Made by a program: the position numbers and the translations under genes. Below are positions 2,934 through 48,616 of a stretch of 64,000 nucleotides of DNA, one piece after another; within the stretch, counting starts at the first letter, position 1; every line of letters starts with the position of its first letter. The DNA comes from an uncultured Oscillospiraceae bacterium (GTDB lineage Bacteria > Bacillota > Clostridia > Oscillospirales > Oscillospiraceae): the NCBI GenBank assembly GCA_958477305.1, contig CAUEFI010000004.1:114770-178769 (forward strand). Reading direction: 5' to 3'. The notes beneath the pieces were generated by a model. It was not told where the DNA came from. It did not search any database and saw nothing but the letters and a program-made list of their open reading frames with translations.

Positions 2934-3146
2934 ATGGAAAGCACCTACACCACCAAGCAGGGGGACGTATGGGACAAAATCGCCTATGAGGTGTACGGCG
3001 ACGAAGAATACACCGGCTGGCTGATGGAAAACAATTTCCCGCTGCTGGACACGTTCGTGTTTGACGCCGGGGTGGTCCTCCAGACCCCGGCCCCGCCGGA
3101 GCAGACCGCGGCCAATGACCTGCCGATCTGGAGGAGCAAGGTATGA
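2934..3146 (+). CDS. small LysM-like phage tail protein (XkdP / gpX-like)
   Basis: A 70-aa protein directly after the tape measure. The GDVWDKIAYEVYGDEEYTGWLMENN segment is LysM-like, and the position matches PBSX XkdP and P2 gpX. Confidence 0.45.
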   Translation: MESTYTTKQGDVWDKIAYEVYGDEEYTGWLMENNFPLLDTFVFDAGVVLQTPAPPEQTAANDLPIWRSKV

Positions 3147-6457: not shown

Positions 6458-7019
6458 ACTTTCCGGCAGCCGCTTCACGGACATTATGCCGGAGAACCTG
6501 GCAGAGCAGCCGGAGATCCAGGCGCTTGCCTACGCCGTGGGCAGGCAGGTGGAGAAGCTGCTGGCCTATGCCGACGGCGCCCGCACCTATGCGGCGATCT
6601 ATGCTGTGCCGGAAAAGGTGCTGGATCTGCTGGCCGTGGAACTGCGTACCCCGTCCTATGACGAAAACTTTTCTATTAAGGTCAAGCGAACCCTGATCGC
6701 GGAAAGCCTGCTGTTTTACGCACAGATGGGCACCCCGGCAGCGGTGAACCGGATCATTGAAACCATTTTCCAGGCCGGTCATATCAGCGAGTGGTGGGAA
6801 TACGGCGGGAAACCCTATCACTTTAAGGCATACACCACGAACCCGGCCATTACGTCGGACGACGTGGAGGAGTTCAAGCGGGTGCTGGGCACCGTCAAGC
6901 GCCTTTCCGCCTGGCTGGACGAAATCGTGTTGGACCTGTCCACACCTCCGGCGGAGGTATTCGTGGGCCATTGGATCCACACGGGCGACTTTATCACCCT
7001 GCAAAGGGCGACTATGTAA
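6435..7019 (+). CDS. phage tail protein I-like (XkdU / DUF2313-like)
   Basis: 194 aa, immediately upstream of the tail fibre gene. Confidence 0.5.
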   Translation: MEGWKMIKLSGSRFTDIMPENLAEQPEIQALAYAVGRQVEKLLAYADGARTYAAIYAVPEKVLDLLAVELRTPSYDENFSIKVKRTLIAESLLFYAQMGTPAAVNRIIETIFQAGHISEWWEYGGKPYHFKAYTTNPAITSDDVEEFKRVLGTVKRLSAWLDEIVLDLSTPPAEVFVGHWIHTGDFITLQRATM

Positions 7020-7035
7020 CAGGAGGTTATCAGCC

Positions 7036-9744
7036 ATGTTTCAGGCCCCGAAACTGACAGACGCCGGCAAAAACCTGTATTACAGGAATATGGCCGGTGA
7101 GGGGATCAAATTCACAACCATTCAGCTGGGCAACGGCACAATCAGCGGTCCGATCTCCGCTATGACGGCCCTTGTCAGCGCCGTGGTGACCATTGACGCC
7201 GAGGTGAAAAACAACGCGGAGCAGTACGCCGACGTGTCCGGCCATTTCTCCAACGCAGAACTGGAGGAGGGTTTTTACTGGCGCGAGATCGGCGTGTTTG
7301 CGGCGGATCCCGATTACCCCAATGACCGCAGCCACGACATTCTTTACTGCTACCAAAACGCCTATGACACGGCGGACTTTATCCCCGTGGCGTCGGTGGA
7401 AACGGTGGAAAAAAACATTACCGTGCCCATTATCGTGGGCGACGCCTCCACGGTGTCCTGCACCCTGTCCAGTTCGCAGGTGCTGGTGTCGGAGGCGGAC
7501 CTGGAGGCGCACGACAAGGACGCGAACGCCCATAATGCCCTGTTTGAGAAGATCAACAAAGAACTGGAAAAGAAACAGGACACGATCACCGCCAAGGGCA
7601 TTTTGAAAGGCGACCAAGACGCAAAGGGAAACCCCACCGTGACCAAGGCCACGCCGGGCGTGGACTACCAGCAGCCCACCCAAGTGCTGACGGAAAGCAA
7701 CGCCATGGCCCTGACGGACACGGTTCCGTTTTTCTCCGGTGCTGACGGGCAAAATCGTAAGGTCACGCTGAAAAAGCTAAAGGAGGCCCTGGGCGTCCAG
7801 TCTGCCAGTATCAACGTGACGACCTGCGCCGGTGCGGCGGTGGTTTGCACGGACGGAGAAACCACCCTGAACGGCGTGGGTTCCACCAAGTTCTCCCTGC
7901 CGGAGAACACCGGCACCTGGGAGGTAACCGCCACCCTGAACGGCCACACGGCCAGCGCCGTGGTGGAGGTCACCGGCGCCATGCAGTACAACGTGGATCT
8001 GGTGATTACCTCCAGCGTGGCAGTCACCCACGCACCCACGAAAACCACCTACAACGTGGGGGAAACATTCGACCCCACCGGCCTGGTGGTCACCGCCACC
8101 TATGCCGACGGCACCACGGAGGACGTAACGGACGGCTGCACGTTCAGCCCCACCGTTATGGCAGCCAGCACCGCGGCGGTGACGATCAAATACCAGCGGG
8201 CGGGCGTGACGGTCACGACCACCCAGGCGGTCACGGTCCTGGAAATGTCCAGCATTTCCGTGAAAACCGCACCAAACAAAACCGCATATTACATCGGTGA
8301 GAGTTTCGACGCCACCGGAATGGTGATTGAGGCCACCATGTCCAACGGCACCAAAAAGACCGTGACGGGCTGGACGTACACCCCCAGCGGCGCCCTTTCC
8401 AAGACGGACACGGCGGTGACGATCTCCTACACGGAAAACGGCGTCACAAAGACCTGCACCCAGGCAATCACGATCCGCACCCTGTCCAGCATTTCCGTGA
8501 CGACGGCACCCGCAAAAACCGCCTACAAGTACGGGGAAAAGTTCAGCAGCGCCGGAATGGTGATTACCGCCAAATATTCGGACAACGCCACCCGCGTGGT
8601 GAGCGGCTGGACCTATTCGCCCACCGGCGCCCTGGGGCTGGCCAATACAACGATCACGATTACCTACGCAGAGGGCGGCGTGAGTAAGACCTGCACCCAG
8701 GCCATTACCGTGAGCAACTACCTTTCCGGTATCGCGGTGACCCACGCACCCACGAAAACCTCCTATTTCACCGGTGAAACGTTCAACAGCGCGGGAATGG
8801 TGGTCACCGCTACCATGGCAGACGGCAGTAAAAAGACCGTCACCGGCTACACCTGCAGCCCCACCACCATGGCAGCCAACACCACGGCGGTCACCGTCAG
8901 CTATTCCGAGGGCGGCGTGACCAAGACGACCACCACCCCGGTGACGGTCACCAGCATTTCCAACACGCTGGCCTCCAACAGCTGGGCAACGATCCGCGCC
9001 GTGTCCGACGCCGGAAAGGGGTCCAATTACTGGAGCGTGGGTGACGCCAAGGGGATCACGATCAACGGCAAAGTGGGCGCCACGACGATCTCCAACCTGT
9101 CCATTTCCGTGTTTATCCTGGGTTTCAACCACAACGCCAGCCGCGAGGGCAGCAACCGGATCCATTTCCAGATCGGCAAGATCAACGGCACCCTGGTGGG
9201 CCTGGTAGACGGCAATTACGGAAGCAGTACCAGCACCACCGGCGCCTTTACCATGAACACGTCATACACGAACAGCGGCGGGTGGAATAACAGCCACATG
9301 AGAAAGACCGTGCTGGGCAGCAACAGCGCCAGCGCCACCAGCCCCGCGGCCAATACCCTGCTGGCAGCCCTGCCGGCGGACCTCCGGGCGGTTATGAAGC
9401 CGGCCACCAAGTACAGCGACAACACCGGCGGCGGAAGTGACACCGCCAGCTATGTCACCAGCACCACGGATCTGTTGCCGCTGCTTTCGGAGTTTGAATA
9501 CCACGGGGCCAGGTCCTACGCCAACAGCGCGGAGAAGAATTACCAGGCCCAGTATGACTATTACAAGGCTGGAAACAGCAAGGTGCATTATAAGCACAAC
9601 GCCACCGGCACGGCGGCCTTTGTGTGGTGCCGTTCCGTCAATTCGGGCATCAGCAGCACTTTCTGCCTTGTCGGCACCGACGGCAGCGCCAGCCGTAGCG
9701 GCGCCCACTATTCCTGGGCGCTGGCCCCCTGCTTTTTTGTCTAA
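7036..9744 (+). CDS. phage tail fibre protein with four tandem Ig-like repeats; its C-terminal domain carries the DGR variable repeat
   Basis: ATG at 7036 with AGGAGG at 7021-7026; the six-frame ORF continues upstream only because the frame stays open. 903 aa with four ~79-aa repeats and a C-terminus ...FVWCRSVNSGISSTFCLVGTDGSASRSGAHYSWALAPCFFV. Confidence 0.8.
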   Translation: MFQAPKLTDAGKNLYYRNMAGEGIKFTTIQLGNGTISGPISAMTALVSAVVTIDAEVKNNAEQYADVSGHFSNAELEEGFYWREIGVFAADPDYPNDRSHDILYCYQNAYDTADFIPVASVETVEKNITVPIIVGDASTVSCTLSSSQVLVSEADLEAHDKDANAHNALFEKINKELEKKQDTITAKGILKGDQDAKGNPTVTKATPGVDYQQPTQVLTESNAMALTDTVPFFSGADGQNRKVTLKKLKEALGVQSASINVTTCAGAAVVCTDGETTLNGVGSTKFSLPENTGTWEVTATLNGHTASAVVEVTGAMQYNVDLVITSSVAVTHAPTKTTYNVGETFDPTGLVVTATYADGTTEDVTDGCTFSPTVMAASTAAVTIKYQRAGVTVTTTQAVTVLEMSSISVKTAPNKTAYYIGESFDATGMVIEATMSNGTKKTVTGWTYTPSGALSKTDTAVTISYTENGVTKTCTQAITIRTLSSISVTTAPAKTAYKYGEKFSSAGMVITAKYSDNATRVVSGWTYSPTGALGLANTTITITYAEGGVSKTCTQAITVSNYLSGIAVTHAPTKTSYFTGETFNSAGMVVTATMADGSKKTVTGYTCSPTTMAANTTAVTVSYSEGGVTKTTTTPVTVTSISNTLASNSWATIRAVSDAGKGSNYWSVGDAKGITINGKVGATTISNLSISVFILGFNHNASREGSNRIHFQIGKINGTLVGLVDGNYGSSTSTTGAFTMNTSYTNSGGWNNSHMRKTVLGSNSASATSPAANTLLAALPADLRAVMKPATKYSDNTGGGSDTASYVTSTTDLLPLLSEFEYHGARSYANSAEKNYQAQYDYYKAGNSKVHYKHNATGTAAFVWCRSVNSGISSTFCLVGTDGSASRSGAHYSWALAPCFFV
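8011..8961 (+). repeat. four tandem ~237-240-nt coding repeats (bacterial Ig-like domains) inside the tail fibre gene
   Basis: The units start at 8011, 8248, 8485 and 8725. They share the motif xTxAPxKTxYxxGExFxxxGMVxTAxxxDG...VTxxYxExGVTKTxTxxVTV. Confidence 0.7.
9610..9737 (+). repeat. DGR variable repeat (VR) at the 3' end of the tail fibre gene
   Basis: About 127 nt nearly identical to 10348-10474. All 17 differences lie where the downstream copy has A. Confidence 0.85.
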
Positions 9745-9768
9745 TCGCCGCAGCATATCCGGCAAAAT

Positions 9769-9790
9769 CCCGCCCACGGAAGTGGGCGGG
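9769..9790 (+). promoter_or_regulatory. GC hairpin with GGAA tetraloop downstream of VR (candidate DGR target-recognition hairpin/cruciform)
   Basis: cccgcccac GGAA gtgggcggg forms a perfect 9-bp stem, located 32 nt after the VR end. Confidence 0.55.
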
Positions 9791-9828
9791 AAACCCGGAC
9801 AGAGAAAGAAAACCCGTGAGGTGAAAGA

Positions 9829-10287
9829 ATGTCAGTTCTGAAAGAAAAGCGGACCGTGAGCAAAGCGGAGTATGTGAACACCGCAAACCAGATTTATGTG
9901 GAAACGGTGGGATTTTTGACGCGGCTTTCCGCCCGTTATTCCCGGCTGATTGCAGAGGGCACCGCGCAGCTGGCCGGTGAGGTCATGGACCACACCGAAA
10001 AGGCCAACAAAATATACCCGTCGGACGAACAGCGCAAAGCCCAGCGCAAGGCGCATTTGCTGGAGGCGCTGGCCTCCCTCTCTGCGCTGGACGTGCGCCT
10101 GACCCACGCCTATCTGGTTATGTACCAGAACCCGCAAGGGTGCTTTACGGCGCCCAGCGGAAAGACGGTCCCGCCCAAGGAGGCCATGGACAAGCTGGAC
10201 CGCATGGCGCAAAGCCTGGGCGAACTGATAGACAGGGAGGACACCCTGCTGCGGAATATCCTGGAGAGCGACAGGAAGCGGAAATAA
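9829..10287 (+). CDS. avd: DGR accessory variability determinant (Avd-like), helical basic protein
   Basis: A 152-aa helical protein sitting exactly between VR and TR. It has an RBS (GAGGTG) and no other recognisable family. Confidence 0.5.
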   Translation: MSVLKEKRTVSKAEYVNTANQIYVETVGFLTRLSARYSRLIAEGTAQLAGEVMDHTEKANKIYPSDEQRKAQRKAHLLEALASLSALDVRLTHAYLVMYQNPQGCFTAPSGKTVPPKEAMDKLDRMAQSLGELIDREDTLLRNILESDRKRK

Positions 10288-10347
10288 GTCATTTTTATGG
10301 GTGTATCTTTGAAAATGCGCCGGGAGGCAGGGCGGCTTTCCCCTCTG

Positions 10348-10474
10348 ACGGCGGCCAATGTGTGGTGCCGTTCCGTCAATTCGAGCAACAGCAACAATTT
10401 CTGCCTTGTCAACACCGACGGCAGCGCCAACAATAACAACGCCAACAATTCCTGGGCGCTGGCCCCCTGATTTT
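10348..10474 (+). repeat. DGR template repeat (TR), AAC/AAT-codon rich
   Basis: In the fibre frame the template reads ...aat tcg agc aac agc aac aat ttc tgc ctt gtc aac acc gac ggc agc gcc aac aat aac aac gcc aac aat tcc tgg.... Every mismatch to VR falls on a TR adenine. Confidence 0.85.
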
Positions 10475-10688
10475 GCATAACTGGGTCAAATGCAGTAACG
10501 AACGTGAACCGGACCCATGTAAAAGGAAAGATACTTCCCTGGCGAAAGCCTGAAACTGCCCGCTGATGATCCCGCGCGGACGCTGCTTGCATGGCGGGGG
10601 TATTGTGCTAACCCCGTTTCATGCGCTGGATCGAAGCAGTTTAGACGCACACCAACACCACAACTGTACGGAGGGCGAATACTTTTCT

Positions 10689-11813
10689 ATGACAAGCGAA
10701 CAGCGCCGCGAGGCGCGTTACAGACGCCGCCAGACAAGGCGGCAGGCAAAGCGAAAGGCCCGCAGCGACGCCCTGGGGCCGATTGAGGAAGTTTTCAGTT
10801 ACCGCGCCATGTTTTTCTATGGCCGGAAATGCTGCAACGGCGTGAGGTGGAAAGCCAGCACACAGCGGTTTGAAATGCACCTGTTTTCCGGCACCGCCAA
10901 GCGCCGGCGCAAGATCCTGAATGGAACATGGAAGCCAGGCAAAACCGCCCATTTCACCCTGAAAGAACGGGGCAAGGTTCGACCAATAGACGCGCCGCAC
11001 ATTGAGGATCGGCAGGTTTATAAGGTTCTGACCAAAAAGGTACTGGTGCCGCTGTATGTGCCCAGTATGATCTACGACAACAAAGCCAGCCAGAAAGGCG
11101 GCGGCCTGCATTTCCATTACAGACGCCTGGCCAAGCACCTGCGGGACCATTACCGCAAGCATGGCCTGGAGGGTGCCCTGTTCCTGATGGATTTTCACCA
11201 CTTTTTCCCGGACGCGCCCCACGCGCTGCTGTATGAGCGGCACCGGGGCATAATCCTAAACCCGGACCTGCGGCAGTTGGCCGATCTGGTGGTGGCAGCT
11301 GTGCAGGGCGGCGTGGGTATGCCGCTGGGCGTGGAGCCAAGCCAGCAGGAAATGGTGGCGCTGCCGTCCTCCCTGGACAACCGGATCAAAGCCCAGCTTT
11401 CGATCCATGGCGCTGCCCATTACATGGACGACTATTACACCATTCTGCCGTCGAAGCGGGCGGCGGAGGTGACCGCGGCGGACGTGATCGGCCACGCGGA
11501 GGCCATGGGCCTGCAGGTCAACGCCGGAAAGTCAAAAGTGGTTCCGTTCTCCAGACCGTTCCGGTTCTGCAAAGCAAAGTTTCAGGTGACGGAAACCGGC
11601 GCCGTGAAGATCCACGGCTGCCGGGACGGAATGAAGCGGGCACGGCGGAAACTGCGGCTTTTCCAGGCGCGTGTGGCCAGCGGTGAAATGACGGTGGAGC
11701 AGGTGGCCCAATGGCTGCAAACACCGATTTCCTACTATGAGAACTTCAACGATCACGGCAGGGTGCTGAAACTGCGGCGGCTATTTTATGCGATTTTCAA
11801 AACGGAGGTGTAA
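10689..11813 (+). CDS. DGR reverse transcriptase
   Basis: It has a YMDD box (HYMDDYYT) and an upstream SQ motif (NKASQKGG), and lies immediately downstream of TR. ATG 10689 has a GGAGGG RBS. The six-frame ORF's 5' extension from 10566 is probably untranslated. Confidence 0.85.
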   Translation: MTSEQRREARYRRRQTRRQAKRKARSDALGPIEEVFSYRAMFFYGRKCCNGVRWKASTQRFEMHLFSGTAKRRRKILNGTWKPGKTAHFTLKERGKVRPIDAPHIEDRQVYKVLTKKVLVPLYVPSMIYDNKASQKGGGLHFHYRRLAKHLRDHYRKHGLEGALFLMDFHHFFPDAPHALLYERHRGIILNPDLRQLADLVVAAVQGGVGMPLGVEPSQQEMVALPSSLDNRIKAQLSIHGAAHYMDDYYTILPSKRAAEVTAADVIGHAEAMGLQVNAGKSKVVPFSRPFRFCKAKFQVTETGAVKIHGCRDGMKRARRKLRLFQARVASGEMTVEQVAQWLQTPISYYENFNDHGRVLKLRRLFYAIFKTEV

Positions 11814-11816
11814 ACC

Positions 11817-12428
11817 ATGTTCAAGATCACAAAAGACGGGGCGACCGTGGCCATGACCGAGGCCCCCAACTACATCAAGCAGGCGGAAAACGGCTGTTTC
11901 GTGCTGTGCCCGGAGGCGGAGGCCACGGGGATCGCATACAACGGCACCGTTTACCACCTCCTGGGACGCCCTGACATGGCGGGGGCAGAAATCACGGTCA
12001 TGCTGGAAGAAACGGACGCGGGAGTGGAGATCGCCAAGGCGGCAGACGCTACGGGGATCGTGTTCGTCACAATGGCGGAGGCCGGAAGCGTGGACGCCAC
12101 AACGGCGGCGGAACACGCGGACCTTTTCGCGCCGTGGGCGGTGCCGGTAGCCTATACCGTGGGCCAGATCCGCAGATATACGGACGGGAAGCTGTATAAA
12201 TGCGTTCAGGCCCATACGTCACAAGCGGACTGGACGCCGGACAAAACCGCAAGCCTTTGGACGCCGGTTTCCGATCCGGCGGAGGAATGGCCGGAATGGT
12301 CCCAGCCGGTCGGCGCACATGACGCATACAGCAAGGACGCCAAGGTGTCGCACAATGGCAAGCATTGGACCAGCACCGTGGACAGCAACGTGTGGGAGCC
12401 TGGCGTGTACGGGTGGACGGAGGTGTAA
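11817..12428 (+). CDS. phage protein with two C-terminal CBM5/12 carbohydrate-binding modules
   Basis: AYTVGQIRRYTDGKLYKCVQAHTSQADWTPDKTASLWTP matches the chitin-binding-domain type 3 consensus (AYxxGQxVxYNGKxYKCxQxHTSxxGWxP...ALW). A second, weaker copy follows. Confidence 0.6.
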   Translation: MFKITKDGATVAMTEAPNYIKQAENGCFVLCPEAEATGIAYNGTVYHLLGRPDMAGAEITVMLEETDAGVEIAKAADATGIVFVTMAEAGSVDATTAAEHADLFAPWAVPVAYTVGQIRRYTDGKLYKCVQAHTSQADWTPDKTASLWTPVSDPAEEWPEWSQPVGAHDAYSKDAKVSHNGKHWTSTVDSNVWEPGVYGWTEV

Positions 12429-13902: not shown

Positions 13903-14775
13903 ATGACTGGAAACGAACTGCGCCGAAAGGTGGCGGACATTATCAACGCATGGGACGGAGCAACCAGAGGCAGCGCCAAGCACCTGGAGATCCTGAACAT
14001 CTACAACAACCACAAGCCGCTGGCAAGAGGTTACCGCGTACAGGTGGGTGACGCCCATTGTGCCACCACGACCTCCGCGGCGTACATCAAGGCAGGGATC
14101 GCGGAGTACACCGGGACGGAGTGCGGCGTGGGAAAGTACGTCGAGATCGCCAAGAAAAAAGGGATCTGGACGGAGAACGACGCATACACCCCCAAGGTGG
14201 GCGACGCCTGCGTGTACGACTGGCAGGACGGGGCCAACTACGCCACCACCGACAACACCGGCGCACCGGATCACATTGGCATTGTCACCAAGGTGGGCGG
14301 CGGCACCTTTGTGGTCACAGAGGGAAACATGAACGGCGGCAAGGTGGGCAAGCGCACCATGAAAGTGAACGGGCGGTATATCCGCGGTTTCATTACCCCG
14401 GACTTTGACATGATCGCCCGGAAACTGGGCGGTACGTCCGGCGGGACGGCGGACAAGCCAACGAAACCGACGACCCAGGCGGCGGGTACATACACCGTAA
14501 AGAGCGGCGACACCCTTTCCCGTATCGCCGCGAAGTACGGCACCACCGTGGCCAAACTGGTAGAGATCAACGGCATTAAAAACCCGAACCTGATCCGTGT
14601 GGGCCAGGTCCTCCGCCTGCCCGGCGGAGCCGTCAAGTACACCGTTGTGGCCGGGGACACCCTTTCCCGTATCGCCGCGAAGTACGGCACCACCGTGGCC
14701 AAGCTGGCAGCAGACAACGGGATCAAAAATCCGAACCTGATCCATGTGGGCCAGGTTATCACCATCAACAAATAA
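13903..14775 (+). CDS. endolysin: N-terminal CHAP peptidase domain with two C-terminal LysM repeats
   Basis: CHAP Cys/His motifs ([13 protein letters not shown] ... [10 protein letters not shown]) are followed by two near-identical LysM units ([23 protein letters not shown]...). A strong RBS (GAGGAGG) precedes it. Confidence 0.85.
14491..14769 (+). repeat. tandem duplicated LysM-coding units within endolysin (14491-14622 and 14638-14769)
   Basis: The two copies share a 47-nt identical core (gacaccctttcccgtatcgccgcgaagtacggcaccaccgtggccaa). Confidence 0.7.
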
Positions 14776-31129: not shown

Positions 31130-31170
31130 AACGCCCGGGCCGAAATTGCCGGCCCGGGCGCTTTTTACAG
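31130..31170 (+). terminator. rho-independent terminator
   Basis: cgcccgggccg...cggcccgggcg followed by cttttt. Confidence 0.6.
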
Positions 31171-48314: not shown

Positions 48315-48347
48315 GTCCCCCGGACGCGATGCGTCCGGGGGACGTTT
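48315..48347 (+). terminator. rho-independent terminator of nifJ
   Basis: tcccccggacgc gat gcgtccggggga followed by cgttttat. Confidence 0.7.
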
Positions 48348-48508: not shown

Positions 48509-48616
48509 GCAGGCCGCCAAGGAACGATATGAGCACCTGCTCAAGTTGGTGGAGCTGTACAAGTAAGCGAGAAGCACAAGTCCCCCGGACGCAATGCGTC
48601 CGGGGGACGTTTTTTT
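48509..48616 (+). repeat. second, diverged copy of the nifJ 3' end (last ~16 codons) plus terminator; direct repeat of 48244-48347
   Basis: It encodes AKERYEHLLKLVELYK-stop with synonymous changes, followed by a near-identical hairpin and a T-run. Confidence 0.7.

Follow-up and report, generated by a model that had tools for sequence, protein, structure and literature searches.

A GC-rich hairpin past the variable repeat of a diversity-generating retroelement in gut Oscillospiraceae phages, a probable target-recognition element

The 64,000-nucleotide stretch analysed here (the window; GenBank assembly GCA_958477305.1, contig CAUEFI010000004.1, positions 114,770 to 178,769), from an uncultured Oscillospiraceae bacterium, carries a complete diversity-generating retroelement (DGR), and just past the variable repeat (VR) of the DGR target gene lies the GC-rich hairpin that is the subject of this report. 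The target gene (6757 to 9744, on the + strand like all other parts of the DGR; from a listing of open reading frames (ORFs), with a putative start codon) encodes a tail-fibre-like protein of 995 amino acids. An N-terminal tail-fibre region, four immunoglobulin-like Big_3 repeats and a C-terminal variable domain make up this protein, which matches PHROG tail-fibre families and, in Pfam, Big_3 four times and DUF6273 weakly (residues 834 to 993). DUF6273-like domains have been modelled as C-type lectin folds (PMC10743442). Within the gene, the four Big_3 domains appear as four tandem repeats of 237 to 240 nt that are 60% to 76% identical (8011 to 8949, + strand). The VR (9610 to 9736, 127 nt) is the final stretch of homology to the template repeat (TR; 10348 to 10474, 127 nt, 31 adenines) and forms the 3' end of the target gene. 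VR and TR are 87% identical, and all 17 of their mismatches fall at TR adenines.

The DGR reverse transcriptase (RT; 10566 to 11813) was identified by matches to RVT_1 in Pfam and to phrog_1423 and by the motifs LGVEPSQ and YMDD, the former being an instance of the DGR-typical motif [I/L/V]GxxxSQ. It also matches PDB entry 8ub7, deposited as 'Reverse transcriptase' (E = 1.4e-6). Related loci were gathered by RT protein (80 viral and 29 genomic loci, RT 49% to 99% identical), and VR/TR pairs were located in approximately 45 of them; individual loci are given below by their L numbers. A small ORF (9829 to 10287, 152 amino acids), an avd candidate by its position, matches phrog_30516 and is conserved in all relatives. 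The protein has no sequence match in Pfam or PDB; a single-sequence AlphaFold2 model predicts three long helices (predicted local distance difference test 70), for which Foldseek found no significant match in PDB, only generic helical bundles. Immediately after TR, an RT-2 RNA (Rfam RF03077) is matched over its full length at 10481 to 10696, scoring 170 bits where the gathering cut-off is 40 (E = 4e-42). Its start is 7 nt past TR, and its 3' part runs ~130 nt into the RT ORF. By its position this is presumably the DGR spacer RNA, which in phage BPP-1 recruits RT-Avd and primes the synthesis of complementary DNA (cDNA) (PMC12875486). A literature search on RT-2 RNA and DGRs found no paper linking the two.

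The hairpin extends from 9768 to 9791 (+ strand) and consists of a 5' arm (tcccgcccac, 9768 to 9777), a GGAA loop (9778 to 9781), and a 3' arm (gtgggcggga, 9782 to 9791). Positions 9769 to 9790, cccgcccac-GGAA-gtgggcggg, form a perfect 9-bp stem of eight G-C pairs and one A-T pair, which becomes 10 bp once T9768-A9791 is counted. Folded as DNA, the 24-mer reaches -13.4 kcal/mol (z -5.4), a value equalled by none of 200 shuffles, and as RNA it reaches -21.9 kcal/mol (z -5.2). With its 71-nt context the corresponding values are -17.8 kcal/mol (z -2.9) as DNA and -31.3 kcal/mol (z -3.6) as RNA. A prior reading of the DNA without database searches (the sequence-only reading) had proposed a perfect 9-bp stem with a GNRA-type loop at this site, and sequence and folds agree with it. 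Perfect hairpins with a stem of at least 8 bp occur 20 times in the window compared with approximately 6 times in block shuffles, and those with a stem of at least 9 bp and a 4-nt loop occur four times against 0.4 expected; among these perfect hairpins the one described here is alone in having a GNRA loop. An Rfam scan of 9000 to 12000 placed no family over the hairpin, the RT-2 RNA after TR being the only match. The hairpin is a real feature rather than a product of chance. A generic repeated phage element was also considered and is ruled out, as the window has a single copy of the core motif, and matches allowing three mismatches or fewer occur at chance level.

The position of the hairpin ties it to VR. 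Homology between the repeats ends at 9736 in VR and 10474 in TR, the fibre stop codon (TAA, 9742 to 9744) follows 6 nt after the end of VR, and the stem begins at 9768 or 9769, which is 31 to 32 nt downstream of VR and 24 nt past the stop codon. The whole hairpin sits inside the 84-nt gap between the fibre stop and the start of the avd-like ORF. The 91 nt downstream of TR fold as DNA to only -7.3 kcal/mol (z -0.3), and a search of these 91 nt for perfect hairpins of at least 6 bp found none. A 3-bp mini-hairpin with a GAAA loop that does occur after TR is part of the RT-2 RNA. A covariance model consisting of stop codon, linker, and hairpin likewise had no match after TR in any related locus. 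Both placements given by the sequence-only reading, some 30 nt after VR just past the fibre stop and absent near TR, are therefore borne out by measurement.

The end of VR itself has the features of an initiation of mutagenic homing (IMH) site. The last mutagenised TR adenines, 10447 and 10448, correspond to VR positions 9709 and 9710, and are followed by an A-free GC-rich block, ttcctgggcgctggccccctg (9711 to 9731, + strand; 21 nt, 16 of 21 or 76% G+C), that is identical in VR and TR. An equivalent block is found in all related loci, and we regard 9711 to 9731 as the IMH-like core where adenine mutagenesis stops. Directly after it, VR has a C at 9732 (+ strand) opposite A10470 of TR, then TTTT follows in both and the repeats diverge (9736/10474). 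In approximately 45 diverse loci the base at this position is C in VR and A in TR, with L048 as the one exception; at ~3063 to 3068 this locus alone has an A in VR, as in TR, at the discriminator after the GC block. The codon at the discriminator is GGN in most relatives, where any base would be silent. Position 9732/10470 would therefore be a fixed VR/TR difference, marking the IMH from its TR counterpart (IMH*), and not a site randomised by the DGR, because C and A are constant in those loci though any GGN base is silent. This arrangement of 9711 to 9732 agrees with the IMH/IMH* concept and with the coconversion boundary inside the BPP-1 (GC)14 (PMC3240598; PMC5758913). The last block shared by the repeats had been called GC-rich like an IMH, which stands, with mutagenesis stopping at an A-free stretch as at the BPP-1 (GC)14. 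The accompanying placement of the hairpin within the IMH region was mistaken, as the IMH-like block ends before the hairpin starts. One close relative, L011 (RT 99% identical), has a deletion of ~74 nt at ~1395 to 1460 that removed the 3' half of VR and the IMH block and kept linker and hairpin. The deletion shifts the normal stop codon out of frame, and the VR of L011 is probably a dead target.

In essentially all of the ~45 loci, VR is followed at a distance of 21 to 38 nt by a GC-rich hairpin whose loop has 4 nt. The covariance model gave one match per locus, on the sense strand and always directly past the VR stop, in 48 viral loci and 27 of the 29 genomic ones. Over ~813 kb it had no other strong match (E < 1e-12), the rest being weak (25 bits or less) and mostly at the same site. 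Covariation was measured on an alignment of 33 sequences, in essentially every one of which the five inner stem pairs are paired. Compensatory changes occur at three stem pairs, one of which is C-G in 13 sequences, A-T in 12, and G-C in 8. The covariation score is 0.244 compared with 0.079 ± 0.011 for shuffles (none of 500 reached 0.244) and at most 0.047 for slid registers. The alignment thus indicates that the structure of the stem, and not its sequence, is conserved. Stem variants include CCCGCCCAC/GTGGGCGGG in the window clade, CCGCCCAT/ATGGGCGG in L027 (with a related 9-bp form in L062), CCGCCCCC/GGGGGCGG in the L037 group, CCGCCGCC/GGCGGCGG in L057, and CCTGCCCGC/GCGGGTGGG, which contains two G.T pairs. 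Stems with a bulged T are found in L031 and the L080 clade, and L033 and L034 have a T.G wobble instead.

Loops in the relatives are GGAA, GAAA, GCAA, or GTAA, giving a consensus of GNAA in which position 2 is free. Judging from these loops, the rule for the lineage is better described as GNRA than as the published GRNA. A strict GRNA search would miss some relatives, because GCAA and GTAA break GRNA and fit GNRA. Three loci have an unchanged stem with the loop TTGC, the exact inversion of GCAA (L049, 3103 to 3126; L113, 1606 to 1629; L119, 982 to 1004). A search for loop-inverted variants recovered only these in a DGR context (L049 also as L117); the other matches were four metagenome ones in unrelated contexts and L118, a match in reverse orientation. 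In the two TTGC lineages with a readable TR, all VR/TR mismatches are at TR adenines (17 in L049 and 9 in L113). These lineages look like natural loop-flip mutants. Another GC-rich hairpin, with the loop GTAA, occurs ~86 to 94 nt past VR, ~50 nt beyond the first, in L037, L041, L042, L044, L048, L054, L057, and relatives, with GGCGGC-GTAA-GCCGCC and TCGGGCGC-GTAA-GCGCCCGA as examples. In the group of Taranis, Roos, and Pioen, this site has GGGCGC-GTCA-GCGCCC. No such second hairpin is present beyond the first in the window.

Close relatives record the diversification of this DGR in nature. Among the 18 near-identical loci compared, defined as those with the VR 3' end of the window, 17 versions of VR occur, and variation reaches 29 of the 31 TR adenine positions. 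Twelve of the 18 have the same 95 nt past VR, and the others depart from them only slightly. This pattern of variation indicates that the DGR is naturally active while the hairpin is held constant. Related phage sequences are a 43-kb human faecal phage contig (98% identical) and Dulem virus 34 (79%), followed by the Faecalibacterium phages Taranis, Roos, and Pioen (~66%), and the RT on a contig of Dysosmobacter segnis is 99% identical. Gut Oscillospiraceae phages are the group to which the element belongs. For Roos and Pioen, a paper that does not mention the hairpin documents read-level VR variation experimentally (PMC11792537); both phages carry a homologous hairpin.

Taken together, these features make it probable that the hairpin is the target-site recognition hairpin, a cruciform-forming inverted repeat, of the phage DGR. 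In the survey of Guo et al. (2011), phage DGR hairpins have a GC-rich stem of 7 to 10 bp and a 4-nt GRNA loop on the sense strand, 4 to 34 bp after VR, and stem structure, loop sequence, and loop size all mattered (PMC3240598); the same hairpin features are applied by MyDGR (PMC6602519). The window hairpin agrees with all of these, having a GC-rich stem of 9 to 10 bp, a GGAA loop on the coding strand, and a distance of 31 to 32 bp from VR, and it lies outside the homology and is absent after TR. The target-recognition interpretation of the sequence-only reading is thus supported. Its more general statement, that phage DGRs need such a hairpin or cruciform, holds with a refinement: the element is documented just past VR (PMC3240598), and the BPP-1 hairpin, which lies downstream of the IMH, raises efficiency and is not strictly essential (PMC3240598; PMC12875486). 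In E. coli, retrohoming is severely impaired once the BPP-1 stem-loop has been deleted (PMC12875486). The BPP-1 hairpin extrudes in supercoiled DNA, and together with the IMH it is sufficient to retarget a heterologous gene (PMC3240598). Anatomy, stability, position, VR specificity, conservation, and covariation of the window hairpin are established directly here; we infer from the BPP-1 experiments that it acts as DNA and boosts retrohoming.

In the mechanism we propose, the DGR would transcribe TR together with the structured spacer RNA, and the RT would make a cDNA with random copying of TR adenines. This mutagenised cDNA would take the place of VR, the 3'-terminal part of the tail-fibre gene. 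VR would be told from TR by its IMH end, consisting of the A-free GC block and the VR-specific C at 9732, and also by the GC-rich stem with its GNRA loop ~30 nt further, which TR lacks. Once supercoiling or replication unwinds the VR sense strand, the inverted repeat would fold, and the folded hairpin may hold open or mark the VR 3' end so that the antisense cDNA pairs and integrates, raising retrohoming efficiency without setting the integration point. In the current view, the spacer RNA primes cDNA synthesis within IMH*, and the antisense cDNA pairs with the sense target strand, preferentially when this is single-stranded as lagging-strand template (PMC12875486). The GNRA loop on the sense strand fits this view, because the sense strand is the pairing partner of the cDNA, and the hairpin would lie just 3' of the predicted annealing point of the cDNA 5' end.

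Several points weigh against recognition of the hairpin as a DNA target element. Its function in this phage rests on analogy and conservation. The spacing of 31 to 32 nt lies near the upper limit of published values, and in BPP-1 a spacer longer than the native 4 bp lowers activity (PMC3240598). A confident inverted repeat was found in only 34% of DGRs (PMC5758913), so the element is not universal. The three TTGC-loop lineages, two of them (L049 and L113) with adenine-specific mismatches, are awkward for the strict dependence on loop sequence seen in BPP-1, where a complementary loop abolished function, unless diversification predates the inversion. Stems of some relatives (L026 and L033) contain G.T/G.U wobble pairs, and sequence cannot separate a role in DNA from one in RNA, because the sense strand is also the mRNA.

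A role as RNA is the alternative that survives best, though we consider it improbable. The hairpin would then be a GNRA-capped stem in the 3' untranslated region of the fibre mRNA, or in the 5' leader of an avd-TR-RT transcript, serving in protection from 3' exonucleases, as a processing site, or in insulating the late structural transcript from the DGR operon. Such a role could coexist with one in DNA. It would be consistent with the GNRA loop on the mRNA strand, the very stable RNA fold, the G.U-compatible wobbles in the L026 and L033 stems, and the location between the fibre stop and the avd-like start. However, the hairpin is tied to VR and not to gene ends generally, as the sole GNRA hairpin in 64 kb and occurring once per DGR locus, and the homologous element of BPP-1 is a determinant of the DNA target (PMC3240598). 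A function in mRNA stability also leaves the absence after TR and the conserved spacing from VR unexplained.

That the hairpin is an intrinsic (rho-independent) terminator of the tail-fibre gene is highly unlikely, despite its being a GC-rich stem-loop directly past a stop codon. The + strand downstream of the hairpin has no T-run (gaaacccggaca), the sequence directly 3' of the stem, aaacccggacag, containing no T/U tract, and no relative has a T-run after the hairpin. A terminator and promoter scan called nothing at 9738 to 9829 on either strand, the hairpin included. The convincing terminators of the window (31132 to 31160, 48315 to 48343, and 48580 to 48608) do have T-runs, the DGR genes begin 38 nt further downstream in the same orientation, and according to Wu et al. 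most DGR inverted repeats are not terminators (PMC5758913). The hairpins at 48315 to 48343 and 48580 to 48608 (+ strand), 265 nt apart, share identical 13-bp stems (GTCCCCCGGACGC) and identical 12-nt upstream flanks, each with a T-run, and look like a duplicated canonical terminator. Finally, a functionless chance palindrome might be sought in a GC-rich region with many short inverted repeats (67 pairs in 10 kb), but none of the 200 shuffles folds as well, chance would give only ~0.4 such hairpins in the window, and the stem is conserved through compensatory changes between loci with RT identity as low as 49%, in contrast to the diverging non-coding flanks, so that conservation and covariation effectively refute this reading and leave it a negligible probability.

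The target-recognition hairpin may be part of a larger structure. In the linker between stop codon and hairpin, a CCGCAG motif (9748 to 9753) lies in a putative mini stem-loop (9747 to 9754, + strand) formed by G9747-C9754 and C9748-G9753 with the loop CGCA (9749 to 9752). Its stem has 2 bp in the window and 3 to 6 bp in some relatives. CCGCAG is invariant in 29 of the 33 aligned relatives and missing in the L080 clade, and the pair flanking it is C-G in 13, G-C in 11, and T-A in 3, and is never unpaired. DNA and RNA fold predictions further suggest an outer helix enclosing the hairpin, with the 5' arm TCCGG at 9758 to 9762 and the 3' arm CCGGA at 9795 to 9799 (+ strand). Other clades have GCCCCC/GGGGGC, CCCGGC/GCCGGG, CCGCC/GGCGG, or GGTCC/GGACC as putative outer helices. 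Pairing is stronger with a locus's own flanks than across clades (-9.9 vs -8.1 kcal/mol, permutation p ~0.005), and shuffles of single sequences mostly give p values of 0.01 to 0.2. The outer helix was not found in L001, L002, and L099, and we treat it as tentative. In the first ~70 nt of L118 (IMGVR_UViG_3300045988_017312), on the reverse strand, inner stem and outer helix form a perfect 20-bp palindrome, CCCGGCCCCATCCCGCCCCC-GCAA-GGGGGCGGGATGGGGCCGGG, with an RNA fold of -57.9 kcal/mol. It is conceivable, if rather doubtful, that the GNAA hairpin is the core of a post-VR module of ~55 to 60 nt, made up of stop codon plus TC, the CCGCAG mini stem-loop, an ATCC motif, and the outer helix, and held at a fixed ~30 to 38 nt from VR. 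If so, target recognition in this lineage would read a folded single-stranded DNA (or RNA) of greater complexity than the IMH plus hairpin of BPP-1, and the variants with TTGC loops and the 20-bp palindrome could serve as natural mutants of the recognition module. Pairing of the linker (CCGCAG...ATCCGG) with the spacer RNA after TR was also considered, a 4+5 bp match to CGGACGCUGC being suggestive by eye. Duplex energies are -23.2 kcal/mol within the same locus, -23.4 kcal/mol across loci, and about -22 to -27 kcal/mol for shuffled linkers, and this pairing was rejected because the own-locus energy equals the cross-locus and shuffled values.

Two further features lie downstream of the DGR. Directly 3' of the RT, an ORF at 11817 to 12428 (+ strand) contains a CBM_5_12 carbohydrate-binding module (E = 1.5e-13). 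Within the ORF at 13903 to 14775 are two 119-nt direct repeats (14491 to 14756, + strand), 87% identical and 147 nt apart.

The locus presents a prophage-type DGR with all of the cis elements believed to steer mutagenic retrohoming towards the tail-fibre gene, which is useful for the annotation of DGRs in gut phages and for the choice of natural target cassettes for engineering. The refinements it suggests are modest, namely the GNAA/GNRA loop rule and a single fixed C/A difference that marks IMH from IMH*. Natural variants, including inverted loops, extended palindromes, and the IMH deletion, could be used to probe the hairpin mechanism. The current understanding of DGRs is unchanged, and the locus holds no mechanistic surprise. 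The hairpin is a clear new instance of a known DGR cis element, in a gut-phage lineage where it was apparently not described before.

Among known stem-loops, intrinsic terminators share with the window hairpin a GC-rich stem-loop past a stop codon and differ in having the U/T tract that this hairpin and its relatives lack. Group IIC introns are retroelements that likewise recognise a GC-rich DNA stem-loop by structure over stem sequence (PMC3240598). These introns use terminator or attC hairpins in single-stranded DNA and insert downstream of them, whereas the DGR rewrites the sequence upstream; loop sequence matters little for group IIC introns, and the window locus contains neither an intron RNA nor a ribozyme.

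The closest parallel is BPP-1. In the BPP-1 locus that we retrieved, the stop codon is followed by the hairpin (tag-c-GGGGCC...), with the stem GCGGGGCC/GGCCCCGC and the loop GAAA, 4 bp after VR and with a DNA fold of -12.2 kcal/mol. The two hairpins differ in spacing from VR (4 bp in BPP-1, 31 to 32 bp in the window) and have no sequence similarity, and the covariance model of the window lineage does not match BPP-1. IMH and IMH* differ at one fixed position (C vs A) in the window and at several in BPP-1, and the window linker has the CCGCAG mini stem-loop and perhaps an outer helix, features with no described counterpart in BPP-1. Hairpin function was tested experimentally in BPP-1, whereas in the window the hairpin is known from sequence. 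Both have a perfect GC-rich stem (8 bp in BPP-1, 9 to 10 bp in the window) with a 4-nt loop on the sense strand (GAAA vs GGAA) and similar stability as DNA (-12.2 vs -13.4 kcal/mol). Both are located just past the target stop codon, beyond the VR/TR homology, are absent after TR, and are preceded by a GC-rich IMH block that ends adenine mutagenesis. The comparison with characterised phage DGRs, which the sequence-only reading had suggested as a check, extends to the catalogue of Guo et al. (Fig. 5) and MyDGR, into which the window element fits in every published respect, the lineage consensus being GNAA and that of the catalogue GRNA.

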